64,000 nt of DNA from Chloroflexota bacterium (GTDB lineage Bacteria > Chloroflexota > Limnocylindria > P2-11E > CF-107). Shown in pieces: positions 47,223 to 64,000 of the stretch. Location: assembly GCA_005881435.1 (NCBI GenBank), contig VBHP01000031.1, positions 15,242 to 79,241 on the forward strand, given 5' to 3'. How positions within the stretch are numbered: position 1 is the first letter of the stretch; each line of letters starts with the position of its first letter. A model generated the notes under the pieces. That model did not search any database. It worked only from the letters and a program-made list of their open reading frames with translations, and was not told the origin of the DNA. The translations under genes and the position numbers were made by a program.

Positions 47223-47226
47223 TGAG

Positions 47227-47493: not shown

Positions 47494-47599
47494 CCTCCCT
47501 GCCCCCTGACTTTCCCTACGCCCTGCTGCATATGCAACGCGGCGCGACAACCGCGGTAAATGGGTCGAAAGTCACCCGGTACCCATTACCATCCCGCAC

Positions 47600-48277: not shown

Positions 48278-48345
48278 GCCGACGGTCTCATCGCGTTCTT
48301 AGCTTTCGCATAGCGTTCGGCACGGCGCGGCCGATATGCTCGGGT

Positions 48346-49359
48346 GTGATGCGTGTCGTGCGACAGCCGCTCGCGCTCGCGGGGGCGGCCATCGTCGTGG
48401 CCGTCGCGCTCGTGGTCGTGGTCGCGAAAGGGTTGAGCACTGGGTCGCCGGGCCCGAGCCCCACACCGGTCACGTCAAAGGCACCGCCGAACTACAACTT
48501 CATCCTGGCCACGCCCGCGGGCATGCTCGCGCTCGACTCGAAGGGCGCGGTGATCGGCCAGGTGACGACGCTGCCGAAGGACTCGGCGCCGTCCTATCCG
48601 TCGTTGATGCCGGATCGGAAGACGCTCGTATTCGGCATCACCCTCAGCGACGCCAGCAACTTCGGCTCGGATGTGTGGTCGGTCAGCATCGATGGCACGA
48701 ATCTGAAAACGTTGATCCAGCACGATCGCGAGAACGTCTTCTACGACACGCCGCTGATCGATCCCACCGGAAAGGTGATGTACGTGCACCGGCGCGCGGC
48801 CATCGTCCAGAACAACACCTACGTCGGCAACGACGACTCGCTCGAGCGTGTCGACCTCGCGACCGGAAAGATGACACGGGTGGTGAGCGACGCCGCGGAT
48901 CCGACCCTGTCTCCGGACGGCAAGCTCCTGGTCTACGTGCGCTACGACAACGGGGCCCCCAAGGGACTGTGGCGGGTCGCGACGGACGGGACTGACAACC
49001 GGCTGTTCTTTTCCATTCCCGATTCGTGGTGGTGGATGCAGTCTCCGCGGTTCGCGCCCGACGGCAACACGATCGCCTTCTCCGCCGCGGGACACAATGC
49101 GCAATCGCTGGCGCCCGGAGTGAAGCTCGCGCACCTCGGCATCCCGAGCGAGCTATTCATTGCGCCCCTGGACGGGAAGAGCGTGAAGTCGATCATTCAG
49201 ACCAACGACGACACGAACCCGGCCTGGTCACCGGACGGCACGAAGATCATCTTCATCTCCGGCGGCGCGCTCTCGATCCTGACCGTCGCCGACGGCAAAG
49301 TGCAGCAGCTGCAACGCGGCGACAACTTCTTCTTCGGCGACCTGGTGTGGCTGCGATAG
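48346..49359 (+). CDS. Secreted TolB-like beta-propeller protein (PD40/WD40-like repeats)
   Basis: N-terminal signal anchor; repeats LSPDGKLLVY, FAPDGNTIAF, WSPDGTKIIF. Confidence 0.7.
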   Translation: MMRVVRQPLALAGAAIVVAVALVVVVAKGLSTGSPGPSPTPVTSKAPPNYNFILATPAGMLALDSKGAVIGQVTTLPKDSAPSYPSLMPDRKTLVFGITLSDASNFGSDVWSVSIDGTNLKTLIQHDRENVFYDTPLIDPTGKVMYVHRRAAIVQNNTYVGNDDSLERVDLATGKMTRVVSDAADPTLSPDGKLLVYVRYDNGAPKGLWRVATDGTDNRLFFSIPDSWWWMQSPRFAPDGNTIAFSAAGHNAQSLAPGVKLAHLGIPSELFIAPLDGKSVKSIIQTNDDTNPAWSPDGTKIIFISGGALSILTVADGKVQQLQRGDNFFFGDLVWLR

Positions 49360-49363
49360 GACG

Positions 49364-50155
49364 CTAGCCGCCGCCCCGCTCGCCCTCGAGCTTCGCGGTG
49401 CGCTCGGCGCGGCGGATGCGCGTAAAGAGGGCGGTAATGAAGACGCCGAAGATCAGGCCGAACCCGAGCCAGCCGAGCAACGTGATCGTGCCCGACGGCG
49501 CCTCGATCGGCGGGTCGCTGACCGCGATCGTCGGGGCGGCCGTGCGCGTGACCGCGGTCGCCGACGGTGCTGGCCCGGATGGTTTCGGTGTGGTCGCGTT
49601 CGTCGGTGCGGGCGATACGACGCCGCCCGCCGCTACCGGGGCGCAGACGCGCGAGCCGTCGACGCCAGGCGCGCTGCCACAAACCGACTGCAGCGCTGAC
49701 AACCACGCGCTGCCGTCGTTGGCCGTGCGCGAGAGCGACACCAGGACGAAGGGATAGCGAGCGCCGGCAGGAGCGCCACAGGTGCCGTCCTGCCAACCGA
49801 GATTCAAGTTAACGGTACCGGCGCTCACGCTCGACGACCCCACCGACGTGATGCAGCGATTGCCGACGTCCGCACCGCGCGCATAGAGGGCCAGGATGTC
49901 GTGTCCGAAGTTCGAGAACAGGGCGCTCGACGGCGGGAAGATGTCGGCGTCGCCGAGTCCCTTGTGGAAGGCGTCGTACTCAGCGGCACTGTTGAACAGA
50001 CGCAGCGACGGCGCCGTGCCGAGATCGGGCAGGTGCCCGCGCAGCTGGACCTGGGTCGAAACGGCCGTGGCTGCCGCCTGCGGCGCGGCCGTGGCATCGC
50101 CCATCGCGGCGAGCGTGAGGGCGAGCACCGCCGCGGCGACGTACGGTCGCTTCAC
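49364..50155 (-). CDS. Secreted Cys-containing domain protein with Pro/Thr/Ser linker and C-terminal TM anchor (paralog A)
   Basis: Signal peptide, conserved block QLRGHLPDLG...CGAPA..YPFVL.SLSRTA.DGS.WL...APGVDGSR.CAP, C-terminal TM plus basic tail. Confidence 0.5.
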   Translation of the reverse strand: MKRPYVAAAVLALTLAAMGDATAAPQAAATAVSTQVQLRGHLPDLGTAPSLRLFNSAAEYDAFHKGLGDADIFPPSSALFSNFGHDILALYARGADVGNRCITSVGSSSVSAGTVNLNLGWQDGTCGAPAGARYPFVLVSLSRTANDGSAWLSALQSVCGSAPGVDGSRVCAPVAAGGVVSPAPTNATTPKPSGPAPSATAVTRTAAPTIAVSDPPIEAPSGTITLLGWLGFGLIFGVFITALFTRIRRAERTAKLEGERGGG

Positions 50156-50218
50156 TTCAGCGGGAACGGTCCCACCACGGGACCGTGACGTGCTCGCCTC
50201 TTCGGGGGAACCCGGGCG

Positions 50219-51121
50219 CTAGAGACGATAGACGCGTGGCCGCATCACCAGCGCGGTCACGAACACACCGACGATGAGACCGACGGCCAGCCATCCCGCG
50301 ACGTCGAGCAGTCCCGAGCCGCCTCCGCTCGACGTGCCGGCGACGACGGCGGTGCCGGTCGGAGAGGGCGAGCTCGTACGCGCGCTGGTCGGCACGGCCG
50401 ATGCCGTCCGCGTCGGCGCGGGCGTCGCCGTTTGCGCCGCCGAAGAAGTTGCCGTCGGGAACGGCGTCGGCGACGAGGTTGGGAGCGGTGTGGCGCTGGG
50501 CGCCGGCGTCGGCGTCGCCGATGGTGCCGGGGAGGCCGAGCCGCCCGACGCCGGCGCGCAGGCGCGCGAACCGTCGACGCCCGGCGCCGCGGCGCAGACC
50601 TGTCGACCGGCGAGCCAACTGCTGCCGTCGTCGGCCGTGCGCGACAGCGAGGTGAGCACGAATGGGTAGTGCGCGCTCGCCGGTGCGCCGCAGCTCGATG
50701 CATCCCAGGAGAGGTCGAGGATCACGGTCGTGCCGACAAGACCCGAGACCGGACCGGCGCGGAGACAGCGTCCACCGGTGTCATCGCCACGCGTGTACAC
50801 CGCGAGGATCTCTTTGTCGAAGGTCATGAACAGCGAATCGGAATCCGGAAACACATCGGCGATGTCCTGCTGCACGCGGAAGGAGTCGTACGACGCGGCG
50901 GTCGTGAAGACCCACATCGCGGGCGCCTCCCCCAAGTCGGGGAGATGACCGCGCAGCTGCAGCTTCGTCGCGACCGAGGTCGGAGCGGCGAGGACCGTTC
51001 CGGCCGCGAGCGCGAGCATCGCGACGACGAGCGGGGCCAGCGCGAGGAGCCGCCTCACGCTAGCCGAACGAGCGAGCGGGGACGGCGTGACGTCACGACA
51101 CACGCCTGACCTGGCAGCCAT
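50219..51121 (-). CDS. Paralog B of the preceding secreted/anchored protein
   Basis: About 55% identity by eye to paralog A across the globular domain; longer PT/S-rich linker; start at ATG 51121, with GTG 51058 an alternative. Confidence 0.5.
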   Translation of the reverse strand: MAARSGVCRDVTPSPLARSASVRRLLALAPLVVAMLALAAGTVLAAPTSVATKLQLRGHLPDLGEAPAMWVFTTAASYDSFRVQQDIADVFPDSDSLFMTFDKEILAVYTRGDDTGGRCLRAGPVSGLVGTTVILDLSWDASSCGAPASAHYPFVLTSLSRTADDGSSWLAGRQVCAAAPGVDGSRACAPASGGSASPAPSATPTPAPSATPLPTSSPTPFPTATSSAAQTATPAPTRTASAVPTSARTSSPSPTGTAVVAGTSSGGGSGLLDVAGWLAVGLIVGVFVTALVMRPRVYRL

Positions 51122-51161
51122 CTGGCAGTACCGACCGCAACGACGCGACGAGGAGTACGAG

Positions 51162-52061
51162 ATGGCGAAGCAGGTTGGCGGCAACGGCAGCGTGGCGCAG
51201 GATCCGCGCGAGGCCGGACCGAAGCCGCCGTTCCCGAAGCAATCGCAGGAGACGCCCGGCACGGAACAGGCGATGCGGCCGAAGCCCGATCACGGCGAGG
51301 ACAGCTATCGCGGCAACGGCAAGCTGACCGGCCGCGCGGCGCTCATCACCGGTGCCGACAGCGGGATCGGGCGCGCCGTCGCGCTGGCCTTCGCGCGCGA
51401 AGGCGCGGACATCGTGCTGTCGTACCTGCCCGCGGAAGAAGATGACGCTCGCGAATCCGCGTCGTGGATCGAGAAGGCGGGTCGGCGCGCGATACGCGCG
51501 CCAGGCGACATCCAGGATCAACGGCACTGCCGCGAGCTCGTGGAACGGACCGTCGCCGAGCTTGGTCGCATCGACATTCTGGTGAACAACGCCGCATACC
51601 AGAAGGCGCACGACGACTTCACCACGATCCCTGCGGAAGACATCGAGCGAACCTTCCGCACCAACATCATCGCCATGTTCTTCCTGGCGCAGGCCGCGGT
51701 CCCGCGGATGAAGGCCGGCAGCTCGATCATCAACACCGCGTCGATCCAGGCCCGCAAGCCGACGCCTCCGATCCTGGCCTACGCCACGACGAAGGGCGCG
51801 ATCGTGACCTTCACCATGGGCCTGGCGGAAACGCTCATCGAGCGCGGCATCCGCGTGAACGCCGTCGCGCCCGGACCGGTCTGGACACCGCTGATCCCGC
51901 AGACGCCGATGGACACCGAGGACTTTGGCGAGTCATCGCCGATCAAGCGACCGGCACAGCCCGCCGAGCTGGCGCCGGTGTACGTATTCCTGGCCTCCGA
52001 CGACGCGCGTTATGTGAACGGCGGCGTCTATCCGGTCACGGGCGGAATGCCGATGGAGTAG
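51162..52061 (+). CDS. SDR-family oxidoreductase (YghA / general-stress-protein-39-like)
   Basis: TGADSGIGRA cofactor motif and YxxxK; GAGGAG Shine-Dalgarno before ATG 51162. Confidence 0.85.
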   Translation: MAKQVGGNGSVAQDPREAGPKPPFPKQSQETPGTEQAMRPKPDHGEDSYRGNGKLTGRAALITGADSGIGRAVALAFAREGADIVLSYLPAEEDDARESASWIEKAGRRAIRAPGDIQDQRHCRELVERTVAELGRIDILVNNAAYQKAHDDFTTIPAEDIERTFRTNIIAMFFLAQAAVPRMKAGSSIINTASIQARKPTPPILAYATTKGAIVTFTMGLAETLIERGIRVNAVAPGPVWTPLIPQTPMDTEDFGESSPIKRPAQPAELAPVYVFLASDDARYVNGGVYPVTGGMPME

Positions 52062-52671
52062 CGCGCCGTTTCGCTCCGGCGCGTGGCGGTCCCGCGACCA
52101 CGACGTACGCGGCATGCGCGATGACCGTGGGCCACAGCGATTGTGAGAGGCCGGCGACCATGCCGGCGGCGACGTTCGTGCCGAACACGACGGCGAGCGA
52201 GCGCGGATCCCGATCGCGATAGGTGACCGCGCGCCAGACCACGTAGGCGATGGCTGAGCCGACGCTCGCGAGCAGCGTGATGAGCGGCGTGCCGGCGGCG
52301 ACGAGCACGAAGGCGCCGCGGAAGATGAGCTCTTCGACGACGGACACGATGAAGGCGAGGTAGGTGGCCTGCACGAGCATCGCGGGATCGCTCGCGGCCA
52401 GCGTCGCGAGGTCGCGCCGTCGGACGATCGCAATGAGCGCTGTCAACGCGACGCCGATCAGCACGCCTGTCGCAGCAGTCGCGGTGAGCCATCGCAGCGG
52501 ATCGATGCCGGCGAAAGCGAAGTACACGGCCGCGAGCGCTCCTCGTGCGAGGTACGCGAACATCGGATGGCGGACCGGCGACAGCGCCGGCGATCGACGA
52601 AGGCGTTCGAACAGCAAGAGAACGACGAAGAGAACGACGGCGGCGAGGTGCTGGGCGGCGAGGCCGCTCAC
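52036..52671 (-). CDS. CPBP-family (CAAX) intramembrane metalloprotease
   Basis: EELIFRG motif and a second His motif; GTG start overlapping the pyrD stop (GTGA). Confidence 0.65.
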   Translation of the reverse strand: MSGLAAQHLAAVVLFVVLLLFERLRRSPALSPVRHPMFAYLARGALAAVYFAFAGIDPLRWLTATAATGVLIGVALTALIAIVRRRDLATLAASDPAMLVQATYLAFIVSVVEELIFRGAFVLVAAGTPLITLLASVGSAIAYVVWRAVTYRDRDPRSLAVVFGTNVAAGMVAGLSQSLWPTVIAHAAYVVVAGPPRAGAKRRATPSAFRP

Positions 52672-53954
52672 TCGGCGCGATATTCCGTGTCGGGCTCGGA
52701 GCTCGGTTTCGGCGGCAGCGCGACGCCGATGACCTCGCGGATCGATGCCAGCCGCGCGTCGCGGACATGCGCCGCCAGACCCTCGAGACAGCGCACCGGC
52801 GCCAGCGGATCGGCGAACGTGGCAGTGCCGATCTGCACCGCGGAGGCGCCGGCCATCAAGAACTCGAGCGCATCCTCGGTCGACGTCACGCCACCGGCCC
52901 CGATGATCGGGATCGAAACGCGCTGCGCCACCTGATACGTCAGGTGGACGGCGATGGGTCGGACTGCCGGACCGGAGAGACCGCCGGACCGCGTCCCGAG
53001 GATCGGCCTGCGCCTCCGCACATCGATGCGCATGCCGAGCATGGTGTTGATGCAGGTCAGCGCGTCGGCGCCGGCGCTCTCGATGGCCATTGCCACCGCG
53101 ACGACGTCGGGCGCGTTCGGCGTCAGCTTCACGATCACTGGCAGATCCGTCTCGGCTTTGACCGCCTCGGTGACCTGCGCCGCGAGCAACGGATCTGTCC
53201 CGAAGAGCATGCCGCCGTCGACATTGGGACACGAGATGTTTAGCTCGAAGGCGGCCACGCCCGGGACGTCCGCGAGCGTGCGGACCACGAAGACGTAGTC
53301 CTCGATGCTGTAGCCGGCGACGTTGACGATGACCGGCGCGCCGATGTCCCGCCACTGCTTCGCGTACGAGCGCGCGACGCCTTCCGCGCCGGGATTCTCC
53401 AGACCGATCGAGTTCAGGATGCCCGACGGTGTTTCGGCGATGCGGTACTGCGGATTGCCGGGCCGCTTCTTCGGCGTCGTCCCCTTGGTGACGATGGCGC
53501 CGAGCAGCGCCGGATCGAACAGCTCGGCGTAGTCCAACCCCCAGCCGAAGCAGCCGCTCGCGGGCATGACCGGATTGCGCAGCTCCAGCGATCCGATGCG
53601 CACGCGGAGATCGACGTCGTCGATCGCGAGCGACCCGATCGGATAGCGCGAGGTTGGGCGTGCTGCGATCTCCGGCCGCGGCGCTCGGGCGCGCCGCGCC
53701 TTCGGCGTCGCCGTCGTCTCGCTCGGCAGATCGACGCCTTTGAGCGCCTGCGCCAACGGCAGCGCCAGCGACGACTCGGCAGTACCGGTGGGCTCGCCGA
53801 GCGCGACCTCGTCCAGCGAGGCGCCCTCGAGCGCCGCGAGCTCGACCGCGTCACTCGCCTCGTCGTCCTCGGCTGCCTCCTCGATGCGCTCCTCGGGCGA
53901 ACTACGCACCAGCCCGCCGCGCTCCACGCGCTTACGCGGACGGCGCCACGGCAT
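52668..53954 (-). CDS. pyrD: Dihydroorotate dehydrogenase catalytic subunit (class 1B) with an acidic N-terminal extension of about 120 aa
   Basis: Core LELRNPVMPASGCFGWG...; ATG overlaps the pyrK stop; the extension is unusual and the true start may lie downstream. Confidence 0.75.
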   Translation of the reverse strand: MPWRRPRKRVERGGLVRSSPEERIEEAAEDDEASDAVELAALEGASLDEVALGEPTGTAESSLALPLAQALKGVDLPSETTATPKARRARAPRPEIAARPTSRYPIGSLAIDDVDLRVRIGSLELRNPVMPASGCFGWGLDYAELFDPALLGAIVTKGTTPKKRPGNPQYRIAETPSGILNSIGLENPGAEGVARSYAKQWRDIGAPVIVNVAGYSIEDYVFVVRTLADVPGVAAFELNISCPNVDGGMLFGTDPLLAAQVTEAVKAETDLPVIVKLTPNAPDVVAVAMAIESAGADALTCINTMLGMRIDVRRRRPILGTRSGGLSGPAVRPIAVHLTYQVAQRVSIPIIGAGGVTSTEDALEFLMAGASAVQIGTATFADPLAPVRCLEGLAAHVRDARLASIREVIGVALPPKPSSEPDTEYRAE

Positions 53955-54784
53955 CAGCGGTCCAGTCCGACCGTCGCCGGCTCGCCGCGCTCGAACCGCA
54001 CGTCGCCGAGCCCGAAGACCGGTCCTTCGCGGCAGACGCGCTCGTTGCCGCGCTCGGTGACGATGACGCACGCTCGGCACACGCCCATGGCGCAGCCCAT
54101 GTGCTGCTCCACCGCGATCTGGGCGTCGAGCAGCGCGTTGCGGCCGACGCGCGTCGCGGGCCCACGGCGCAGGTCTTCGCGCAGACGCGACAGCGCCGCC
54201 AGCATCGGCCACGGCCCGCAGGCGATGATCTGATCGGCCCACGGCATCAGCTCCGCGAGGACGTCGGTCACGCGCCCGCGCGTTCCGAACGAGCCGTCCT
54301 CCGTCGTGGTGACGTACTCGACGGCGGCGGGGAGTCGGTCCGAGGGCCAGAGGTGCCGGATGGTGCGACCGCCCATCAGTAGGGTCACGCTCCGACGGTC
54401 GCCCTCCTGCTCGGCGAGAACGCGCATCGGCGCGATGCCGGTGCCGCCGGCGACGAGCAGCAGGTTACGCGTGTCGCGCTGCACCACGAAAGACGTGCCC
54501 AGCGGTCCGAGCAGGTCGAGGGCGTCACCGGGCCGGCGCGTGGCGATCCACTCGCCCCCGCTGCCGAGTGCCTTCACGATCAGCTCGATCTCGCCGCCGT
54601 CGCGGTCGATGCGGCAGAACGAATAGGGTCGTCGGAGCAGCGGATCCCATCCCGTTCCCGGCCGCACGTGCGCGAACTGGCCCGGCCGGGCGCGCGAGGC
54701 GATGTCCGGCGCGCGGATCGCAAGGAGCGTTCCGAGCTCACCAATGTCGCTCGCCTGCACGACGCGACCGGTCTCGAGGACCAT
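53954..54784 (-). CDS. pyrK: Dihydroorotate dehydrogenase electron-transfer subunit
   Basis: FAD/NAD-binding RPYS, GGTGIAP, C-terminal 2Fe-2S Cys cluster CAMGVCRAC. Confidence 0.8.
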   Translation of the reverse strand: MVLETGRVVQASDIGELGTLLAIRAPDIASRARPGQFAHVRPGTGWDPLLRRPYSFCRIDRDGGEIELIVKALGSGGEWIATRRPGDALDLLGPLGTSFVVQRDTRNLLLVAGGTGIAPMRVLAEQEGDRRSVTLLMGGRTIRHLWPSDRLPAAVEYVTTTEDGSFGTRGRVTDVLAELMPWADQIIACGPWPMLAALSRLREDLRRGPATRVGRNALLDAQIAVEQHMGCAMGVCRACVIVTERGNERVCREGPVFGLGDVRFERGEPATVGLDR

Positions 54785-54825
54785 GACGTCGAGTTTGGCA
54801 GACGGAGCCAGGGAAGTGGCGAGAC

Positions 54826-56739
54826 CTATCTGGCCATCTTGAATACGTCACGTTGGAGCGCGACGCCGGTGTTCATCCGGATGATCTCAGCCAGCGTGTG
54901 CTGGTAGGTGATGCCGTACCGCTGCGCGATCGCCGGCAGGGCGGAGTCGTTCCGATAGAAGAACCGGTCGCCGGCTCGGAGAGCCTCGAATTGCCGCTTC
55001 CAGATCGCGAGCTGCAGCTCTCCGAATTCGGTTCCCACCACGTGGCGCTCCGAGATCATGCCGACAAACGCATCGAGCTTACCGACGTCGCCGTAGACGG
55101 CCTTCAGCCGCGCCGCGAGCGTCGTGCGTCGAACCCCGACCACGGCATCCTCCTCAGCCGCCGGGTCATCGAGTGCGATCACCGCCCCGTTCGCGTCGCG
55201 TAGCTCCACGAAGTCGAGGATGTTCGGATCATCGATCGGATCGAAACGATCGATCTGCCGGTCGTGTGGGAAGACTTGGGTCCGCTCACCGGTGATCGCA
55301 GCGAAGGTGTGCTTCGGCGCCAAACCGTAGGCCCGCCTCAGCTCGTTGTACGAGGGCATGCCGTGATCTCGTCCGCGCTGGATGTCGATCGCGCCAAGAT
55401 CGCTGACGCCACTGAAGCAGTCCGGATTCACCACCGGCTGGCCGCACACGGTCGGATCAGCGATCCCGGGCTTAGGGACCTGGAACAGGACGCTCCGCAG
55501 CGTGTTGTCGATCTGCTCGTCGTTCTTGTATTGGCGCTCGGAGGCGAGGCTCCGGAGGACCGCACCAAGACCGAGCTGGCGGACAAGATCCGGGTTGCCG
55601 AAAGCGACGTTCAACGGGATCACGAGGGTCACGTCGCTTGCGGTTCGTTCGATGCCGATGCCCTGGGCGGCAAAGGCCGCGAGGCGCGCTTCGGAATATC
55701 GGCCTGGCGCGGACGTCACGTCGAACTCGCCGTGGATCATGCTGTGCGCCCGATAGCCCACGACGGCGAACTCGTTAGACAGCCCCGCATTCACGGTCGG
55801 GTCGTAGCCGGAGTAGCTGTTGAGCCGAACGCCGAGCGCCGGCAGGAACTGCGTAAACGTCACGTATTGGATCTCGGCGCCGACCACGCGGCGCGCGATC
55901 TCGAACTTTTCCTCGTCGCTGAGAGAGGACGGCAGCGCGGCCACGATGCGGTTGTGCTCACGAGCGAACAAGGTATGAACAGCCGTGAGCGCGATGTTCT
56001 CGTTCGCGCGCACGTCGCCCGCCACGATCGCGCGCCCGGGCGTCGCGAGGAGTGCACCCATGAGGTCCATCGCCGGGGCGGCCGCGGCGTCCCCGCGCGC
56101 GTTGACGCGGGGCAGGAAGCCGTCGGCCAGAAGCAGTCGCGCCCCATTGTCCGCGAGGTTGCCATCGATCGGGCCCTCGCGCAGCCACTCCAGCCGCGCG
56201 GCGCTGACGCCGTAGACGCCGGAGCCATCGATATAGCTGCTGATCGTGTTCAGCTGTTGCCGCGGCGAAGTCTGGCCCGTGCCGGGGGCCGCGGGCGTGC
56301 GGAAAAAAGCGATAGAGCCGAGGTCGTCGCGGAACGCCTCGAGCGCGTCGTTGGGATCGAACGCGATGGCGGCGTTCTCCGCGGCGGTCTCGACGCGCAG
56401 ACCGAAGTCATGATCCAGGAACTGTCCCCACGTCCAGGCCCACTGCGTGAGGCCGTTCTCGGAAAAAAGATTCTGACCGACGTCGTTGAAGACCCGATTG
56501 CTCACGTACCGCGCGGCGGGTCCACCGACCATCGCGCTCGTGCCGTCCGCGTACCGCGGCACAGCGACCCGCAGGTACTGCGTGTTCGCGCTTCCCCATT
56601 GCGGATTGCGGAGGTTGTTACCAGTGCCGTCGAGCGTGCGACCCGTGAGGACAGCCGCAGCGGGCGTCGCCGGCAGCGCCATGAGCAGCACGGTCGACAG
56701 GAACACCAAGACAGTCGTAGACAGCCGGATCTTGCGCAC
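54826..56739 (-). CDS. Secreted haem peroxidase of the peroxidase-cyclooxygenase ('animal haem peroxidase') superfamily
   Basis: Signal peptide; WGQFLDHD distal-His motif; RANENIALTAVHTLFAREHNR proximal-His region. Confidence 0.75.
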   Translation of the reverse strand: MRKIRLSTTVLVFLSTVLLMALPATPAAAVLTGRTLDGTGNNLRNPQWGSANTQYLRVAVPRYADGTSAMVGGPAARYVSNRVFNDVGQNLFSENGLTQWAWTWGQFLDHDFGLRVETAAENAAIAFDPNDALEAFRDDLGSIAFFRTPAAPGTGQTSPRQQLNTISSYIDGSGVYGVSAARLEWLREGPIDGNLADNGARLLLADGFLPRVNARGDAAAAPAMDLMGALLATPGRAIVAGDVRANENIALTAVHTLFAREHNRIVAALPSSLSDEEKFEIARRVVGAEIQYVTFTQFLPALGVRLNSYSGYDPTVNAGLSNEFAVVGYRAHSMIHGEFDVTSAPGRYSEARLAAFAAQGIGIERTASDVTLVIPLNVAFGNPDLVRQLGLGAVLRSLASERQYKNDEQIDNTLRSVLFQVPKPGIADPTVCGQPVVNPDCFSGVSDLGAIDIQRGRDHGMPSYNELRRAYGLAPKHTFAAITGERTQVFPHDRQIDRFDPIDDPNILDFVELRDANGAVIALDDPAAEEDAVVGVRRTTLAARLKAVYGDVGKLDAFVGMISERHVVGTEFGELQLAIWKRQFEALRAGDRFFYRNDSALPAIAQRYGITYQHTLAEIIRMNTGVALQRDVFKMAR

Positions 56740-56957
56740 CGGAGCGCCTCCCCTGGCGACGGCCGACGGCCTTTCCGTCCCACCACCTCGCGCGCGCTAC
56801 GTGCCGGCGGCACCAGCGCCCCTGCCCCATTCAGACCCGGTGATCGCTCGCCACTGCATCAACGCCCCCGCGCGAAAGAGGCGTTACGAGCGTGCCGATA
56901 GGAAAGTCGTTCGACTGAAACGAATCGTGGGCGTAGGCAAGCGTGTCGAAAAACGGG

Positions 56958-57509
56958 TCATCGCGGCCACACCCGAGTGAACCCGTGCGGATACTCGACC
57001 ACGAGGCCGTCGGCGTCGAGCACGATGTCCGAGCGGAACGTGCCCGACTCGAAACGGTGCATCGTGCCATCGTCGCGCCGGACCAGGCAGGTGTAGCGCT
57101 GGCGTGAGATGCCGACGCGCAGATCGGGAACGTCGACGTACGCGACGCTCAGCTCCTGCGACGCCAGTGGCGCGAGGTCGAGCCGCCGCACCGGCAGGGT
57201 GTTCGTGAACGGCGTCACCGACAGATCGACGTCGATGCAGCCGTCGAGCGCCGCGATCGCTCGGCCCTCGGCGGTGCGCCAGTTGCCTTCGCCGTCGGCA
57301 AGAAGCACAACGCTCTTTGCGGCATCGAGCAGATCGACGTGCAGCGAGCGCGTCCGCCAGCGCTCATCCCATTCGACGGCGTAGCGTGTGCGGAAGGGTT
57401 GATCGCCGCGGATGCCGATGACCATCCCATCCGCCACTCGCCCCGTGACGCGACAGTGCTCGAACCCGGGTCCGCGCACCGGCGTCCACATCACCTCGCG
57501 CGGCTTCAC
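56958..57509 (-). CDS. Hypothetical protein (possibly glycolipid-binding DUF1089-like), translationally coupled to carB
   Basis: GTG overlaps the carB stop (GTGA); an internal ATG at 57491 is an alternative start; the upstream extension is antisense to carB and was discarded. Confidence 0.4.
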   Translation of the reverse strand: MKPREVMWTPVRGPGFEHCRVTGRVADGMVIGIRGDQPFRTRYAVEWDERWRTRSLHVDLLDAAKSVVLLADGEGNWRTAEGRAIAALDGCIDVDLSVTPFTNTLPVRRLDLAPLASQELSVAYVDVPDLRVGISRQRYTCLVRRDDGTMHRFESGTFRSDIVLDADGLVVEYPHGFTRVWPR

Positions 57510-60500
57510 CTGCTCGCCGCCAGCACCCGTTGCTCGCGGTACTCGCGCAGCGGCGCGACGCTGTAGCCCGCGCCTGCTCCCTGCAGCGCGGTGACGACGG
57601 CGCCGGCGGTGTCGAGCGAGGTCAGGCACGGCACACGACTCTCGACCGCGGCGCGCCGGATCAGAAAACCGTCGCGCTGCACCGATCGTCCCAGCGTCGG
57701 CGTGTTCAGCACCGCGGCGCAGGTGCCGGAGCGGATGAACTGGATGATCGCGTTCGAGCCCTCGTCGAGCTTCTTGATCTCGCGCACCGGCAGACCGAGC
57801 TTGCGGATCGCGTCGGCCGTGCCGCTGGTGGCGACGAGCTCGTATCCGAGCCAGTGGAAGCCCTCGATGATCGGCAACGCCTCGGCCTTGTCCTTGTCCG
57901 CGACGGTGACGAGGACGGCGCCCTCGTGCGGCGGGGCCATCCCCGCCGCGACCAGCGCCTTCCACAGCGCCGGAGCGAACGAGCGATCCACGCCCATGAC
58001 CTCACCGGTGCTCTTCATCTCGGGGCCGAGATGGGTGTCGACGTCGAGCAGCTTGGCCATGGAGAAGACCGGCGCCTTCACCGCCACGAGGTCGCCGGAG
58101 GGATGCAGCCCGGGCACGTACCCCAAATCGGACAGCGTCTTCCCCTGTGCGATCTCGACGGCGAGGCGCACCAGGGGCACGCCGGTGACCTTGCTCAGGA
58201 ACGGGACCGTGCGCGAGGCGCGCGGATTGACCTCGAGGACGTAGACCACGCCGCCCTGGACGATGAACTGGATGTTGAGCAGACCCTTTACCGGAAGGGC
58301 CGCGGCGATGCGGCGGGTGTGTTCGACGAGCTGGCGCTCCTCGTCCGCCAGCAGGTTTCGGGCGGGGTACACCGCGAACGAATCGCCGGAGTGCACGCCC
58401 GCGCGCTCGATGTGCTCCATCACGCCGGCGATGAGCGTGTCCCGGCCGTCGGCGACGGCATCGACCTCGACCTCGCGGCCCTCGACGTACTTGTCGACGA
58501 GCACCCGGCCGGTGCCGGCTTTCAGCGCGGCGTCGAAGTAGCGCGCCAGATCCTCGTCGGCATAGACGATCTCCATGCCGCGGCCGCCGAGGACATAAGA
58601 AGGACGCACCAGCACCGGGAAGCCGACGTCGTGAGCGATGGCCTGGGCGTCCTTGAGATCGTCGGCGGTGCCGCCCGGCGGCTGCGCGATGCCGAGGTCG
58701 TCGCACAGCTGGTGGAACGTGCGCCGGTCCTCGGCCACGGCGATCGCGGCGGCGGACGTCCCGGCGATGGTCCCGCCGATGCCGGCCAGGCGCTCGGCGA
58801 TGTTCAGCGCCGTCTGCCCGCCGAATTGCACCAGCACCGGCAGCGGATCGTCCGCCGTGGCGCCTTCGTTCGCCAGCACCCCGGCGATGGATTCGTCGTC
58901 CAGCGGCTCGAAGTACAGCCGCGCGCTGGCGTCGAAGTCGGTGGAGACCGTCTCCGGATTCGAGTTGATCATGATCGAGCGGATGCCGGACGCGTCCAGC
59001 GCGGCCGCGCCCTGCACGCAGCAGCAATCGAACTCGATGCCCTGCGCGATGCGGATCGGGCCGGCGCCGAGCACGATCGTCTTCGGAGCGGGAAGTGGAA
59101 CGGCTTCGTTCTCCTGCTCGTAGGTGGAGTAGAAATAGGGCGTCTGTGCGGCGAACTCGGCGGCGCAGGTGTCGACCATCTTGTAGACCGGCGCGATGCG
59201 CCATTGCGCGCGCAGTCCGCGGATATCCGAGACGAGCACTCCCGCGAGCCGCGCCACATCGGTGTCGGGGAAGCCGAGGCGCTTGGCGCGGCGCAGCAGC
59301 GCCGGCGTCGGCGTCTTGCCCTGCAGCTCATCCTCCGCGAATCGCACCAGGCGCTGCATCTTGCGCAAGAACCACGGGTCCACGCCGGTCTGCGCGCGCA
59401 GCTCATCGATCGCCGCGCCGCGGCGGAGCGCGGCCAGGAGCGCCCAAAGCCGGTCGTCGCGCGGCCGATCCAGGAAACGGTATGCGAATTCGTGCGCGTC
59501 GCTGACGGCGACCCATTCCGGATCCTCCCACAGCAGGCCGCGCCCTTTGAGCTCGAGCGAGCGCAACGCCTTCTGCAGGGCGGCTTCGAAGGTGCGATCG
59601 ATGGCCATGACCTCGCCGGTCGCCTTCATCTGCGTACCGAGCGTGCGATCGGCCGTGGCGAACTTGTCGAACGGCCAGCGCGGGATCTTGACCACGACGT
59701 AGTCGAGGGCCGGCTCGAAGGCCGCCGTGGTCTTGCCGGTGACGGAATTCGCGATCTCGTGCAGCCGCTTCCCGACGGCGATCTTGGTCGCGACGCGGGC
59801 GATCGGATAGCCGGTGGCCTTCGACGCCAGCGCCGACGAACGCGACACCCGCGGGTTGACCTCGATGACGTAGTACGGTGCCCGGGCGTTCGGCTCGCTC
59901 GACGGCTCGAACGACGGATCGAGGCCGAACTGGATGTTGCAACCGCCCTCGATGCCCAGCGCACGAATGATCCGGATCGCGGCGCTGCGAAGCTCCTGAT
60001 ACTCCTTGTCCGTCAGCGTCTGCGACGGTGCGATGACGATCGAATCGCCCGTGTGCACGCCCATGGGATCGAAGTTCTCCATGTTGCAGATGGTGATGCA
60101 GGTGTCGTTGGCGTCGCGCATCACCTCGTACTCGATCTCCTTCCATCCCACGAGGGACCGCTCCACCAGGACCTGGCCGATCGGCGAGGCGCGGATGCCG
60201 GCGTGCACGCGTTCGACGAGCTCGCCCGGGTCGCGGGCGAAACCGCCGCCGGTGCCGCCGAGGGTGTAAGCGGGACGGACCACCAGCGGGAAGCCGATGC
60301 GGCGCGCGAAGCTCTCAGCCTGTTCGACGCCGGTCACCGTCATCGATTCCGGCACCGGCTCCCCGATGCTGATCAGCAGCTGCTTGAACTTCTCGCGGTC
60401 CTCGGCCGCACGGATGGCCTCGAGCGGGGTCCCGAGGAGTCGAACGCCGTAGCGATCGAGCACGCCGGCGTCGGCCAGCGCCACGGCGAGATTCAGACCG

Positions 60501-60760
60501 GTCTGGCCGCCCAGCGTCGGGAGTAGCCCGCCCGGCCGCTCTTTCGCGATCACGCGCTCGAGCACTTCGACCGTGAGCGGCTCGACGTACGTGATATCCG
60601 CGACGCCGGGGTCGGTCATGATCGTGGCCGGGTTCGAGTTGACGAGCACCGTCTCGATGCCTTCCTCCCGCAGCGCGCGGCACGCCTGCGTCCCGGCGTA
60701 GTCGAACTCGGCGGCTTGGCCGATGACGATCGGCCCGGAGCCGATGATCAAAACCTTCAT
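57506..60760 (-). CDS. carB: Carbamoyl-phosphate synthase large subunit
   Basis: 1084 aa with two ATP-grasp halves, oligomerisation domain and MGS-like domain. Confidence 0.95.
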   Translation of the reverse strand: MKVLIIGSGPIVIGQAAEFDYAGTQACRALREEGIETVLVNSNPATIMTDPGVADITYVEPLTVEVLERVIAKERPGGLLPTLGGQTGLNLAVALADAGVLDRYGVRLLGTPLEAIRAAEDREKFKQLLISIGEPVPESMTVTGVEQAESFARRIGFPLVVRPAYTLGGTGGGFARDPGELVERVHAGIRASPIGQVLVERSLVGWKEIEYEVMRDANDTCITICNMENFDPMGVHTGDSIVIAPSQTLTDKEYQELRSAAIRIIRALGIEGGCNIQFGLDPSFEPSSEPNARAPYYVIEVNPRVSRSSALASKATGYPIARVATKIAVGKRLHEIANSVTGKTTAAFEPALDYVVVKIPRWPFDKFATADRTLGTQMKATGEVMAIDRTFEAALQKALRSLELKGRGLLWEDPEWVAVSDAHEFAYRFLDRPRDDRLWALLAALRRGAAIDELRAQTGVDPWFLRKMQRLVRFAEDELQGKTPTPALLRRAKRLGFPDTDVARLAGVLVSDIRGLRAQWRIAPVYKMVDTCAAEFAAQTPYFYSTYEQENEAVPLPAPKTIVLGAGPIRIAQGIEFDCCCVQGAAALDASGIRSIMINSNPETVSTDFDASARLYFEPLDDESIAGVLANEGATADDPLPVLVQFGGQTALNIAERLAGIGGTIAGTSAAAIAVAEDRRTFHQLCDDLGIAQPPGGTADDLKDAQAIAHDVGFPVLVRPSYVLGGRGMEIVYADEDLARYFDAALKAGTGRVLVDKYVEGREVEVDAVADGRDTLIAGVMEHIERAGVHSGDSFAVYPARNLLADEERQLVEHTRRIAAALPVKGLLNIQFIVQGGVVYVLEVNPRASRTVPFLSKVTGVPLVRLAVEIAQGKTLSDLGYVPGLHPSGDLVAVKAPVFSMAKLLDVDTHLGPEMKSTGEVMGVDRSFAPALWKALVAAGMAPPHEGAVLVTVADKDKAEALPIIEGFHWLGYELVATSGTADAIRKLGLPVREIKKLDEGSNAIIQFIRSGTCAAVLNTPTLGRSVQRDGFLIRRAAVESRVPCLTSLDTAGAVVTALQGAGAGYSVAPLREYREQRVLAASR

Positions 60761-60776
60761 CGGATGCCGTCGTGGC

Positions 60777-61907
60777 TCATGCGCCGCTCCGGCACAGCGC
60801 GATGAAATCGGCGAACGCGGACTGATTGTCTTCCGGGCCCGGAGCCGCTTCGGGATGGAACTGCAGTGTCCGGATCGGTAGCGTCTTGTGCGCCAGTCCC
60901 TCGACGCTGCCGTCGTTCAGGTTGCGGTGGCTGACGTAGAAGCCGCTCTCCGCGGCGAGCGATTTCTCATCGACCTGGAACTCGTGGTTCTGCGAGGTGA
61001 TCGCGACGCGCCCGGTGCGCACGTCCTGGACCGGATGGTTCGCGCCGTGATGTCCGAAGGGCAGACGCGAGGTCGTCGCTCCGATCGCGCGCGCGAGCAG
61101 CTGATGACCGAGGCAGATGCCGAAGATCGGCAGTGGATGACCGTTGCCGCGGGTGGTCGAGGCGTCGAGCAGAAGACGGGTGGTCTGGACCGCGGCGTCG
61201 AGGCTCGCCGGATCGCCGGGGCCGTTGGATAGGAGGATGCCGTCGGGCCGCCAGCCCAGGATCTCGGAGGCCTTCGCCGCCGCCGGAAAGAGCCGCACCG
61301 TCGCCCCGTATGCGGAAAGCAGCCGGAGCTGTTGCTCCTTCACGCCCGTATCCAGCAGCGCGATCCGCGGACCTCCCGACCGACCGTCCTGCTGGCGGAG
61401 GGCGCCGCTGACCTCGGCCACGACGGGACGATCAGCGAGGCGCGGGACGGCGCGGGCCTTGGCGATCGCCTCCTGTGCCGCCGCGACAGCCCCCGCTTCT
61501 TCCGGACGCACCTGCAGCAGGTAGCCGCGCATCGTGCCCTTCGATCGCAGCCGGCGCACCAAGGCCCTGGTGTCGATGCCGGCGAGCCCCGGAACGCCGT
61601 ACGAGCGCAGGTATTCGTGGAACGATGCGACGCCGCCTCGCGTGGGCTCGTTCAGCTCGCGGACGACGATCGCCTCGGCCCACGGCCGCCGCGATTCAGC
61701 GGCGCGCGCAAAAGTGCCGTAGTTCCCGATCAGCGGATAGGTGAAGACGACGATCTGTCCGCGATACGACGCGTCCGTCGCCACCTCCTGGTATCCGGTC
61801 ATCGCGGTGTTGAAGACGACTTCGGCGCCGACGCTGACGGCGTCGCCGAAGGCTTCGCCCCAGAACGTCGATCCGTCTTCCAGCGCCAGGACGGTGGCTC
61901 GTTGCAT
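60777..61907 (-). CDS. carA: Carbamoyl-phosphate synthase small subunit
   Basis: Start at the internal ATG (MQRATVLALEDGS); glutamine amidotransferase GICLGHQ, HE. Confidence 0.9.
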   Translation of the reverse strand: MQRATVLALEDGSTFWGEAFGDAVSVGAEVVFNTAMTGYQEVATDASYRGQIVVFTYPLIGNYGTFARAAESRRPWAEAIVVRELNEPTRGGVASFHEYLRSYGVPGLAGIDTRALVRRLRSKGTMRGYLLQVRPEEAGAVAAAQEAIAKARAVPRLADRPVVAEVSGALRQQDGRSGGPRIALLDTGVKEQQLRLLSAYGATVRLFPAAAKASEILGWRPDGILLSNGPGDPASLDAAVQTTRLLLDASTTRGNGHPLPIFGICLGHQLLARAIGATTSRLPFGHHGANHPVQDVRTGRVAITSQNHEFQVDEKSLAAESGFYVSHRNLNDGSVEGLAHKTLPIRTLQFHPEAAPGPEDNQSAFADFIALCRSGA

Positions 61908-61987
61908 CGGTGAATAACTATACGGATGGTCTGCATAAAGATTCAATTGCCATTCGGTCAGTCGCTGTCCGTTCGTCCTCGCCTGTC

Positions 61988-63250
61988 TCACTCGAGGCGC
62001 TGCTCTCCCTCGACGAAGGCGGCCACGACCCGACCGCCCATGCGCCGCCCCAGCAACGGCGTGTTCTTGCCGCGCGAGATGAGCGCGTCGATGGCCACCG
62101 TCCATTCGGCGTCCGGATCGATGAGCACGACGTCGCGAGCGAGCGATGGCGCGTCCAGCCCGAAGCACCGCGCCGGTCCCACGGTGAGGCGTTCGATCAG
62201 CACTCCCAGGTCGATCCATCCCGCGCCCGCGGCGTCGAGCAAGACGGACAGCGCAGTCTCGAGTCCGCTGATGCCGAACGCGGCCTGGTCGTACTCGACG
62301 TCCTTGTAGGTTGAGGCGTGCGGGGCGTGGTCGGTCGCGATCGCGTCGATCGTGCCGTCGCGAAGGCCCTGCCACAGCGCCTCGATGTCGGCGCGAGGAC
62401 GCAGCGGCGGGTTCACTTTCGTGGCCGTGTCGTATGGCGCGGCCGCGGCGCTGCCGTTCCGGCGATCCCAGGCGAAGGTGCGATCGCCCGCGACCCAGTC
62501 GTCGGTCAACGCCAGATGGTGCGGCGTGACCTCACAGGTCACCGGCACCCCTTCGCGTTTGGCCGCTCGCACCAGCGCCACGCCGCGTGCGGTCGACACG
62601 TGCGCGATGTGCACACGCCCGCCGGTGAGCCGCGCCAGCGCGAGGTCGCGTGCGATGGCCGTCTCCTCCGCGGCGCTCGGAATGCCGGGCAGGCCGAGGA
62701 GCGCGCTGGCCTCGCCTTCATGCATCACCCCGTTCGCCGCCAGCACCGCGTCCTGAGCGTGGTCGGCGATCACGCGCCCGGTGGCGCGGGCGTACTCCAG
62801 CGCGTAGCGCATCAGTCGCGCGTCCTGCAGTGGCGCGCCGTCGTCGGAGAACGCGACCGCGCCGGCATCGGCAAGCTCCGCCATATCCGACAGCGCCACG
62901 CCCTTGCGGGCGCGCGTGATCGACCCGATCGGCAGCACGCGCGCCGCCTTCGCCGCCGCGGCGCGCTCGCGGACCTCCTCCAGCAAGCCGGGCGCGTCGA
63001 GGACCGGCTCGGTGTTGGGCATGCAGCACACCGTGGTGAACCCGCCGCGAAGCGCGGCGCGCGCACCATCGGCGATCGTCTCGCTCTCTTCGAAGCCGGG
63101 CTCGCGGAGGTGCGTGTGGAGGTCGATGAAGCCAGGAGTCGCGATGAGCCCGGCTGCGTCGATCGTGCCGGCGCGATCGCCGATCGACAGCTCGCGGATC
63201 TCGTCGGTCCCGCTAGTGGGGTCGATGACTCGCGCGCCGACGATCCTCAA
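61988..63250 (-). CDS. pyrC: Dihydroorotase
   Basis: FIDLHTHLREPG...; TTG start overlapping the pyrB stop (TTGA). Confidence 0.8.
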   Translation of the reverse strand: MRIVGARVIDPTSGTDEIRELSIGDRAGTIDAAGLIATPGFIDLHTHLREPGFEESETIADGARAALRGGFTTVCCMPNTEPVLDAPGLLEEVRERAAAAKAARVLPIGSITRARKGVALSDMAELADAGAVAFSDDGAPLQDARLMRYALEYARATGRVIADHAQDAVLAANGVMHEGEASALLGLPGIPSAAEETAIARDLALARLTGGRVHIAHVSTARGVALVRAAKREGVPVTCEVTPHHLALTDDWVAGDRTFAWDRRNGSAAAAPYDTATKVNPPLRPRADIEALWQGLRDGTIDAIATDHAPHASTYKDVEYDQAAFGISGLETALSVLLDAAGAGWIDLGVLIERLTVGPARCFGLDAPSLARDVVLIDPDAEWTVAIDALISRGKNTPLLGRRMGGRVVAAFVEGEQRLE

Positions 63251-64000
63251 TCCGGCACCTCCGTCCCGGCGAGCAGGTACAGCAGCGCCATGCGCACGGC
63301 CACGCCGTTCGTCACCTGCTCCTCGATCACCGCGCGCGGTCCGCGGGCCACCGCGGCCGCGATCTCCACGCCTTCGTTCAGCGGCCCCGGATGGAGGACC
63401 GGCGCGCCCGGCTTCGTCACCGCGAGACGCGCTTCGGTGATTCCCCAGACGCGGGCGTATTCGCGGGTCGAGGGAAGAAGTCCGGCGCTCATCCGCTCCT
63501 TCTGTAGCCGCAATGCCATCACCGCGTCGACACCTTCCAGTGCTCGTCCGAGGTCCGTCTCGACGCGCACGCCGGCTGGCGCGTGGCCGCAGCGCCACGC
63601 CGCCGGCAGCAACGTCGGCGGCCCGCATAGGACGACCTCGGCTCCGAGCGCGCGAAGGGCGTGCACGTTCGAACGCGCCACGCGCGAGTGCAGGACGTCG
63701 CCGACGATCGCGACGGTCTTGTTCGAGAGCGTCCCCAGGCGCGCGCGCAGGGTGAACGCGTCGAGCAGCGCTTGAGACGGATGCGCGTGCCAGCCGTCGC
63801 CGGCGTTCACCACCGACGCCTCGACACGGTCCGCTACGAAGTAGGGCGCTCCGGACGAGCCGTGGCGCAGCACGATGACGTCGCCGCCGAGCGCTTGCAG
63901 CGTCCGCACGCTGTCCAGCAGCGACTCCCCCTTCTCCACGCTCGAGCCGGAGCTGGTGATGTTGACGACGTCGGCGGAGAGCGCCTTCGCCGCAAGCTCG
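63247..64000 (-). CDS. pyrB: Aspartate carbamoyltransferase catalytic subunit (C-terminal part; the gene continues beyond the window end)
   Basis: HPSQALLD and the C-terminal ATCase region; no start codon inside the window. Confidence 0.85.
   Translation of the reverse strand, partial: ELAAKALSADVVNITSSGSSVEKGESLLDSVRTLQALGGDVIVLRHGSSGAPYFVADRVEASVVNAGDGWHAHPSQALLDAFTLRARLGTLSNKTVAIVGDVLHSRVARSNVHALRALGAEVVLCGPPTLLPAAWRCGHAPAGVRVETDLGRALEGVDAVMALRLQKERMSAGLLPSTREYARVWGITEARLAVTKPGAPVLHPGPLNEGVEIAAAVARGPRAVIEEQVTNGVAVRMALLYLLAGTEVPD

Follow-up and report, generated by a model that had tools for sequence, protein, structure and literature searches.

Why should a secreted haem peroxidase be encoded in the middle of a gene cluster for pyrimidine biosynthesis? 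The question is raised by a stretch of 64,000 nucleotides from a Chloroflexota bacterium of the class Limnocylindria (assembly GCA_005881435.1, contig VBHP01000031.1, positions 15,242 to 79,241), which in the following is called the window. Here, nine genes on the minus strand follow each other in the order pyrB-pyrC-carA-carB, a gene of the family PF06475, a peroxidase gene of the An_peroxidase family (POX), pyrK, pyrD, and a gene for a CPBP-family membrane protein (Table 1). The best explanation, which we regard as probable, is a recent insertion of an autonomous POX cassette in one young soil lineage, neutral or opportunistic, at a site in the pyr cluster where insertions are tolerated throughout the class; a separate part of this explanation is that the long N-terminal extension of PyrD is genuine.

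Insertion of the peroxidase gene

The comparison comprised 36 Limnocylindria loci from a scan of the GTDB species genomes, to which the window proteins were mapped by tblastn, and closer relatives (L084, L085, L086, and L091) that were located through their PyrD homologues. A sequence-only reading of the window had proposed to date the insertion by the gene order in relatives, and the relatives do date it: POX is present at the junction only in the window, together with a nearly identical assembly (L090), and in a diverged sister species (L001). At carB|pyrK neither POX nor the PF06475 gene is found in any of the 36 GTDB loci. L084, whose carB is 88.5% identical to that of the window, has the order pyrR-pyrB-pyrC-carA-carB-PF06475-pyrK-pyrD-CPBP, and L091 (carB 88.1%) has the same core order. 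L085 (carB 86.3%) contains carB-methyltransferase-PF06475-pyrK-pyrD-CPBP and L086 (PyrD 70%) PF06475-pyrK-pyrD, and all four lack POX. In each of these four the stop codon of the PF06475 gene overlaps the start of pyrK (ATGA or GTGA). According to the carB identity matrix, the window and L001 form one clade (94.6%) with L084 and L091 outside (88-89%), and the distribution of POX is explained by one gain in the ancestor of the window and L001. Between these two the divergence at 4-fold sites is 0.316 for POX and 0.364-0.385 for carB, pyrK, and pyrD. Because the value of POX is close to those of its neighbours, the gene has been in place since the two lineages split.

The boundaries of the insert can be taken from the uninterrupted PF06475/pyrK junctions of the four relatives. 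The insert starts within the last codons of the PF06475 gene, supplying its present TGA, and ends 3 nt before the ATG of pyrK. The earlier impression that a secreted peroxidase is anomalous in a biosynthetic operon is thus right in so far as POX is an intruder, given the PF06475/pyrK overlap in the relatives without it, but it does not extend to a link with pyrimidine synthesis, because unrelated fillers are common in these clusters. In a first and older event the PF06475 gene would have come to lie between carB and pyrK, so that its stop overlapped the start of pyrK, and a CPBP-family gene would have been added after pyrD. More recently, in the ancestor of the window and its sister, a self-contained cassette of about 2.17 kb would have been inserted a few bases 5' of the pyrK start, and this insertion would have broken the PF06475/pyrK overlap. 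The cassette would have brought its own 5' region, a Shine-Dalgarno sequence, and an open reading frame with a signal peptide, and in the sister species also a 3' hairpin. The inserted POX would be a lineage copy of a gene that is present elsewhere in the class as a stand-alone locus.

Permissive junctions of the pyr cluster

In general, the 36 Limnocylindria loci have the order pyrB-pyrC-carA-[gap]-carB-[gap]-pyrK-pyrD, with gaps of 14-1200 bp at carA|carB and of 23-5438 bp at carB|pyrK. The open reading frames in these gaps nearly all run in the direction of the pyr genes and belong to families that are recurrent but mutually unrelated. A PhzF gene lies between carA and carB in 12 loci (L001 4964..5806 and 11 GTDB loci, e.g. 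L004 5084..5932) and is absent from the window, L084, and L085. Other fillers are a glyoxalase/VOC protein of about 143 aa (12 loci), an MFS protein of about 395 aa (11 loci), Hcp (T6SS_HCP) homologues, a methyltransferase, a PNPOx-like protein, several unknowns, and a protein with a weakly dirigent-like match that is below the Pfam cut-off. Both junctions thus tolerate the same-strand insertion of unrelated accessory genes, and because they hold such genes in many species, POX is one case of a general pattern. The PF06475 gene is found between carB and pyrK only in the subclade of the window (L001, L084, L085, L086, and L091). The CPBP gene is present 3' of pyrD in L084, L085, L091, and L001, whereas L086 and the GTDB species loci lack it there, and it follows pyrD by a 4-nt overlap only in this subclade. 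From its distribution it looks like a lineage-specific passenger, as does the PF06475 gene.

Type VI-like Hcp genes are unexpected in pyr clusters of Chloroflexota. The homologues at carB|pyrK (E 5e-33; L037 7509..9108, L010 8549..9094, L014 8585..9103, and L006 5960..6445) adjoin the methyltransferase and the small protein with the weak, sub-threshold dirigent-like match, and one Hcp copy has a C-terminal extension of about 230 aa.

The usual locus of the peroxidase

POX has thousands of homologues; the best 120 share 65-89% identity with it and are similar in length. It stands alone in four other contexts (L002, L087/L088, L089, and L003), and in all four a GC-rich hairpin is found directly 3' of its stop. 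The neighbourhood in L002, L087/L088, and L089 consists of a Pyr_redox_2 flavoprotein gene, sometimes a Glyoxalase_3 gene, a tRNA-Arg(TCT), and then POX. In L002 and L087 POX is convergent with a gene of 400-431 aa, which is followed by RidA and a TenA/haem-oxygenase-like gene. Other genes are located immediately downstream of POX in L089, where the TenA-like gene is kept, and the context is different in L003, where POX is still a stand-alone gene. The tRNA-Arg(TCT) is immediately 5' of POX in either orientation (L002 9119..9191, L087 2724..2797, L088 134..207, and L089 7796..7870). tRNA genes are common recombination sites, and this adjacency might relate to the mobility of POX. In tblastn searches of the window the neighbours of the usual locus (Pyr_redox_2, Glyoxalase_3, RidA, TenA-like, and luciferase-like) had no matches; the sole tRNA in the window is a tRNA-Lys.

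Expression of the inserted gene

In the sequence-only reading, overlapping starts and stops ran through the whole block and made it one translationally coupled unit. Overlaps were found at four junctions (pyrB/pyrC TTGA, carB/PF06475 GTGA, pyrK/pyrD TGATG, and pyrD/CPBP GTGA), but at the other four the genes are separated, by 80 bp between pyrC and carA, 16 bp between carA and carB, 218 bp between PF06475 and POX, and 41 bp between POX and pyrK. The single coupled unit has to be given up, since POX has non-coding spacers on both sides and a strong Shine-Dalgarno sequence of its own.

The 218-bp spacer differs from that of L001 by 14.9%, compared with 32-38% at the flanking 4-fold sites, and has thus diverged about 2.3 times more slowly; it contains perfectly conserved blocks of 22-25 nt. 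This suggests that the spacer is a constrained regulatory region of POX, either a promoter or a 5' untranslated region. A structured leader was considered here and ruled out by folding, in which the spacer has no excess structure and is less structured than shuffled sequences (z +2.3). Rfam detected only a tRNA in the whole window and the loci of four relatives, and no riboswitch, PyrR element, or other spacer RNA. The spacer between POX and pyrK is 84 bp long in L001 and contains a perfect hairpin with a 13-bp stem (L001 11772..11806; 91-nt fold -43.9 kcal/mol, z -3.3), of which the shorter spacer of the window has no left arm, and this fits read-through. POX is probably expressed for the most part from the constrained region 5' of it, and expression of pyrK-pyrD-CPBP would now depend either on read-through of the cassette or on a promoter within it.

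It could also be supposed that POX is functionally integrated into the operon, being co-transcribed and co-regulated with the pyr genes, so that linking its expression to the pyrimidine or growth status would be adaptive. POX is co-oriented with the pyr genes, nothing resembling a terminator follows PF06475 or, in the window, POX, and the arrangement has been kept since the split of the window and L001 (about 32-38% 4-fold divergence). In addition, other Limnocylindria keep same-strand accessory genes at carB|pyrK, and the cluster could be an expression platform. However, POX is translationally uncoupled by its spacers and its own Shine-Dalgarno sequence, its 5' spacer is constrained as expected for an own regulatory region, and in the sister species a strong hairpin separates it from pyrK. 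Wherever else it was examined it stands alone and has a 3' hairpin, and the genes that occupy the junction in other species have no functional relation to each other. We know of no biochemical link between a secreted haem peroxidase and pyrimidine synthesis, and functional integration is an unlikely explanation. It is equally doubtful whether the housekeeping pyr cluster as a whole is an expression platform that recruits accessory genes (POX, Hcp-like, MFS, VOC, PhzF) for advantageous co-transcription, with POX under pyr control and the conserved N-terminal module of PyrD as a new docking or regulatory element, e.g. a tether to PyrK or to a metabolon.

Several observations weigh against the insertion of an autonomous cassette as we prefer it. 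The conservation of the 218-bp spacer rests on two sequences only. A consensus scan for sigma70 promoters and terminators had no match in either POX spacer, which leaves room for co-transcription from an upstream pyr promoter, and a blastn-short comparison of the 218-bp spacer with the regions upstream of POX genes at other loci revealed no homology. The idea that POX moved together with its ancestral promoter is, without such homology, not supported. The hairpin might have been lost in the window or gained in L001, as both fit the two sequences. Concerning the mechanism, a repeat search found no flanking or terminal inverted repeats and no mobile-element genes around the insert, and no target-site duplication beyond a trivial ATG(A/G). 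Finally, POX genes away from the pyr cluster reach no more than 72-74% identity, the window does not include the usual locus, and a relocation, a duplication, or a transfer from an unsampled Limnocylindria lineage would fit the sequences alike.

The N-terminal extension of PyrD

The core of PyrD (aa 115-412) scores 404 bits with NF005574, for which the cut-off is 269, and 348 bits with TIGR01037, for which it is 270. The ATG of the gene shares one base with the pyrK stop, and an identical protein of 428 aa is present in the database (P0121). The best NCBIfam matches of PyrK, which has four Cys in its C-terminal segment, are all PyrK models, yet below the equivalog cut-offs (148 bits vs 314).

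It has to be considered whether the residues in front of the PyrD core are an annotation artefact, the start being near the core of this class 1B dihydroorotate dehydrogenase (DHODH), e.g. at GTG 53603, and the 350 bp upstream a non-coding spacer. The extension is of low complexity and predicted to be largely disordered, there is an in-frame GTG at aa 119, and some gene callers placed the start further downstream (413 aa in L001; the 299-aa entries P0139 and P0143). However, from the ATG onwards the reading frame is uninterrupted and conserved. All Limnocylindria genomes sampled (about 36 species) match PyrD from residue 1, and the database contains more than 100 homologues of 400-467 aa whose alignments span 97-100% of the query. 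In Thermomicrobiales, Dehalococcoidia, Chloroflexia, Dormibacterota, and Firmicutes, by contrast, the match begins only at about residue 83-125. A module of about 55 aa is conserved in all 22 aligned sequences (MPWRRPRKxVERxGxVRRSxEExLExAAExEExxDAVELAxLDGASxxEAATGEP), the first three residues M, P, and W being invariant, and is followed by a linker that in these diverse sequences is very variable in length and sequence. Substitutions in the extension by codon position are 18/12/39 in comparison with L001 and 26/15/52 in comparison with L084, and the GC content at third codon positions (GC3) is 0.86 in frame. Because of this third-position bias and GC3 the extension must be translated and under moderate constraint. 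In addition, the internal GTG is not preceded by a Shine-Dalgarno sequence. An artefact is thus very unlikely. The extension, for which about 120 aa had been claimed, is about 115 aa long and class-wide, and its conserved, coding-type sequence speaks against a translation start at a downstream codon. Judged by these patterns, the extension is a real, class-specific appendage, and PyrD starts at the ATG overlapping the pyrK stop.

The net charge of the extension is +6 in aa 1-19 and -14 in aa 20-60. In an AlphaFold2 model of PyrD (22 sequences) the extension has a predicted local distance difference test score of 34-63, with predicted helices at residues 21-43, 48-53, and 65-72, and it should therefore be mostly disordered and not a folded domain. 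Neither Pfam (E up to 10) nor NCBIfam had a match to the extension alone. With aa 1-75, phmmer found 18 matches among 1.84 billion representatives. Five were inspected and are truncated or mis-started PyrD fragments; another match is a protein of 2372 aa (P0242) with six matched stretches at 32% identity. The suggestion that the module is common to other enzyme families was rejected on the five matches inspected of the 18, each of these five being PyrD. N-terminal extensions are known from class 2 DHODHs, where they are membrane anchors, and the literature search yielded no description of one on a class 1B DHODH. A role in docking or assembly with PyrK or another partner is a guess.

Two contigs labelled Gemmatimonadaceae and Saccharimonadales (L034 and L044) encode a Limnocylindria-type PyrD with 71-75% identity, and the class-specific extension is also present in protein P0204. 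These contigs have probably been mis-binned in public metagenome-assembled genomes.

The peroxidase and its origin

POX matches PF03098 far above the cut-off of 25 bits, at aa 34-485 and in a C-terminal stretch. Among solved chains it is closest to 8s6c_A (528 aa, deposited as 'Lactoperoxidase', E 4.5e-67), followed by Dictyostelium DdPoxA (6erc_A, E 3.5e-41) and then by MPO, LPO, and EPO. The distal signature X-G-Q-X-X-D-H-D-X comprises the halide-binding Gln, the ester-forming Asp, the catalytic His, and the Ca-binding Asp (PMC4420034), and is found as W-G-Q-F-L-D-H-D-F at aa 104-112 of POX and in 117 of its 120 closest homologues. The X-R-X-X-E-X motif with the catalytic Arg and the ester-forming Glu (PMC4420034) corresponds to G-D-V-R-A-N-E at aa 241-247, and R-x-x-E is kept in 120 of the 120. 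The proximal His is H332 (Y-R-A-H-S, from aa 329), which aligns with the His of Y-R-V-G-H-T in 8s6c_A and of F-R-F-G-H-S in 6erc_A, and the R-G-R-D-H-G helix is also kept. In known enzymes the proximal His is hydrogen-bonded to an Asn (Asn421 in MPO; Asn-403, with Arg-406, in DdPoxA; PMC4420034, PMC3533774, PMC5787809). At this position POX has D452 (codon 55384..55386), as seen in 'AIDIQRGRDHG' vs 'SLNIQRGRDHG' in 8s6c and 'SRNLQRNRDHG' in 6erc. The Asp is shared by 119 of the 120 closest homologues, and the Arg three residues on (R455) is kept. A His-Asp pair is typical of plant and fungal peroxidases, and D452 resembles it. As far as the alignment tells, the change from Asn to Asp is a substitution within the family and not grounds for exclusion.

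The N-terminus of POX, read by eye, looks like a Sec signal peptide at aa 1-29 (MRKIR, a hydrophobic core, PATPAAA, then V), and equivalents are found across the clade, in agreement with the earlier assignment. POX would thus be exported by the Sec system and act outside the cell, with no role in pyrimidine synthesis. LspPOX and DdPoxA oxidise bromide, iodide, and thiocyanate (PMC5787809), and by analogy, and only by analogy, we infer that POX could be an extracytoplasmic, H2O2-dependent oxidase of (pseudo)halides or organic substrates. The literature search found no paper containing both 'Limnocylindria' and 'peroxidase'. Across the clade this secreted peroxidase of the LPO/MPO type is strongly conserved (65-74% identity), about as strongly as PyrK and PyrD.

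Concerning the origin of the inserted copy, a recent horizontal acquisition from outside the Limnocylindria, e.g. from cyanobacteria or actinobacteria, might be supposed because the overall GC content of POX is 65.8% and thus slightly lower than the 68-72% of the neighbouring genes, and because peroxidase-cyclooxygenase genes are patchy in bacteria (PMC4420034). The comparison of composition with the pyr genes, as had been proposed, nevertheless shows POX to be native by its GC3, which at 0.834 is within 0.3 standard deviations of the window genes (0.845+-0.039, 46 genes). Among the top 120 homologues the few with source names are from Limnocylindria or Chloroflexota, the named homologues of PyrD likewise coming from Candidatus Limnocylindria or Chloroflexota. 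A neighbour-joining tree places the POX of the window and L001 on a separate deep branch inside the clade with normal root-to-tip length, and the POX of the window has the clade-specific Asp at the proximal Asn position. The native composition and the position in the tree fit an origin within the class, and an acquisition from outside is very unlikely.

The least credible alternative is that POX was joined to the pyr cluster by metagenome mis-assembly or binning: the window is from an uncultured, metagenome-type lineage and mis-binned contigs with non-Chloroflexota labels exist among its relatives (L034, L044), but the same gene order is found in the independent ENA assembly L090 (99.9% identity to window 46668..59954, 13.3 kb) and as PF06475-POX-pyrK-pyrD-CPBP in L001, which is from another sample (POX 89% identical) and alignable at both POX junctions, so that mis-assembly is excluded for all practical purposes.

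The gene block and its neighbours

The gene content and order given for the minus strand by the sequence-only reading were borne out by Pfam and, for PyrD, also by NCBIfam (Table 1). The region has a GC content of about 69%.

Table 1. Positions of the genes, spacers, and other features of the pyr block in the window.
Feature	Position	Strand	Evidence and remarks
pyrB (aspartate carbamoyltransferase)	63247..>64000	-	Pfam OTCace_N + OTCace; partial, truncated by window end
pyrC (dihydroorotase), TTG start	61988..63250	-	Pfam Amidohydro_1 + DHOase; 86% identity to L001 gene
Sigma70-like match TTGAAT-18-TATAGT in the 80-bp pyrC-carA gap	61917..61946	-	Consensus match; sole promoter-like match in 51500..64000
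carA (carbamoyl-phosphate synthase small chain), ATG 61907	60777..61907	-	Pfam CPSase_sm_chain + GATase
carB (carbamoyl-phosphate synthase large chain, 1084 aa)	57506..60760	-	Pfam CPSase_L_D1, D2, D3, MGS
PF06475 'putative glycolipid-binding' (Glycolipid_bind) gene	56958..57509 or 57491	-	Pfam 183 bits
Inserted POX cassette, ~2174 bp (5' spacer + open reading frame + 3' spacer)	~54788..56961	-	Comparison with uninterrupted PF06475/pyrK junctions in L084, L085, L086, L091
Spacer 5' of POX, 218 bp	56740..56957	-	GGGGAGG Shine-Dalgarno 6 nt before GTG start
An_peroxidase (POX), 637 aa	54826..56739	-	PF03098 348.5 bits
Spacer POX-pyrK, 41 bp	54785..54825	-	Only right hairpin arm (~54794..54808) vs L001; no structure (z 0.0)
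pyrK (class 1B DHODH electron-transfer subunit, 276 aa)	53954..54784	-	Pfam DHODB_Fe-S_bind, NAD_binding_1, FAD_binding_6
pyrD (class 1B DHODH catalytic subunit, 428 aa)	52668..53954	-	NCBIfam NF005574; DHO_dh core from ~aa 116
PyrD N-terminal extension, aa 1-116	53607..53954	-	Basic tip, acidic helix region, variable Pro/Arg/Ala-rich linker
CPBP/Rce1-like membrane protein, 211 aa	52036..52671	-	PF02517 37.4 bits (cut-off 22.4)
Convergent short-chain dehydrogenase, downstream end of block	51087..52061	+	Pfam adh_short_C2 198.7 bits

The PF06475 gene could start at GTG 57509, which gives the GTGA overlap with carB, or at ATG 57491, which is the start called in relatives. The latter is more likely in view of the relatives, and the carB/PF06475 overlap is therefore not certain. 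The sigma70-like match between pyrC and carA may be an internal carAB promoter and is listed as a candidate. This gap is relatively AT-rich, and a comparable gap of about 83 bp is found in L001 and L085.

The CPBP gene overlaps the convergent short-chain dehydrogenase gene by 26 bp at its 3' end. The catalytic motifs of CPBP proteins are EExxxR, FxxxH, and HxxxN/D. The window protein contains EELIFR, which is invariant in four of four homologues; with the positions assigned by eye, the segment of motif 2 is AYVVWR and lacks the His, and motif 3 is AHAAY with the His but without Asn/Asp. Going by these motifs, the protein may not be an active protease.

Two tandem paralogous open reading frames lie nearby at 49364..50155 (-) and 50219..51262 (-), and the same pair is called in L090 (300 and 263 aa); they have no Pfam match. 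Both begin with a signal-peptide-like stretch and end in a hydrophobic anchor, with a Pro/Thr/Ser/Ala-rich linker in between, and they share a conserved domain with the pattern 'QLRGHLPDLG...FPxSxSLF...YxRGxDxGxRC'.

Comparison with known systems

The insertion is a gene-order curiosity of modest weight and a variant of known systems. It illustrates that embedding in an operon-like block is weak evidence for shared function, and that comparing contexts makes it possible to date and explain gene-order 'anomalies' in uncultured soil phyla. The clade-wide change from Asn to Asp in POX and the class-specific appendage of PyrD are of specialist interest, but neither alters a major question.

POX resembles the Family 6 peroxidockerin-like peroxidases (PMC4420034) and DdPoxA (6ERC; PMC5787809) in being a secreted single-domain enzyme with the PF03098 domain, and in having G-Q-x-x-D-H-D with the ester-forming Asp, R-x-x-E with the ester-forming Glu, and the proximal His and Arg. 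In contrast to MPO and DdPoxA it has an Asp as partner of the proximal His, and compared with 8s6c there are about 55 extra residues between aa 485 and 542. It may belong to Family 5 or Family 6. The CPBP protein shares with the CPBP/type II CAAX prenyl endopeptidase family (PF02517) a score above gathering, a multi-pass hydrophobic sequence, and the EExxxR motif, and differs from the type II CAAX endopeptidases by the apparent absence of the His of FxxxH and an apparent third motif without Asn/Asp. PyrD is like the class 1B DHODHs of Lactococcus and Bacillus, which are PyrD/PyrK heterotetramers, in its equivalog-level core, the invariant NISCPN active-site segment, and the adjacent pyrK with FAD, NAD, and 2Fe-2S domains; unlike these it has the N-terminal extension, which among the taxa sampled is unique to Limnocylindria.

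The block as a whole is best compared with the Bacillus-type pyr operon (pyrR-pyrP-pyrB-pyrC-carA(pyrAA)-carB(pyrAB)-pyrK-pyrD-pyrF-pyrE). Both have the core order pyrB-pyrC-carA-carB-pyrK-pyrD on one strand and start/stop overlaps, which in the window are found at several junctions, and the relatives of the window have a Pribosyltran-family gene upstream at the position of pyrR. The leader of the window's own cluster is beyond the end of the window, and in the leader regions of four relatives no PyrR-binding RNA was matched by Rfam at gathering score. In contrast to the Bacillus-type operon, the block of the window is without pyrP, pyrF, and pyrE, accessory genes are embedded (PF06475, POX, and CPBP in the window; PhzF, VOC, MFS, Hcp, and others in the relatives), and PyrD of Limnocylindria is extended at its N-terminus. 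The block would thus be the Limnocylindria version of the Bacillus-type cluster, (pyrR-)pyrB-pyrC-carA-carB-pyrK-pyrD.

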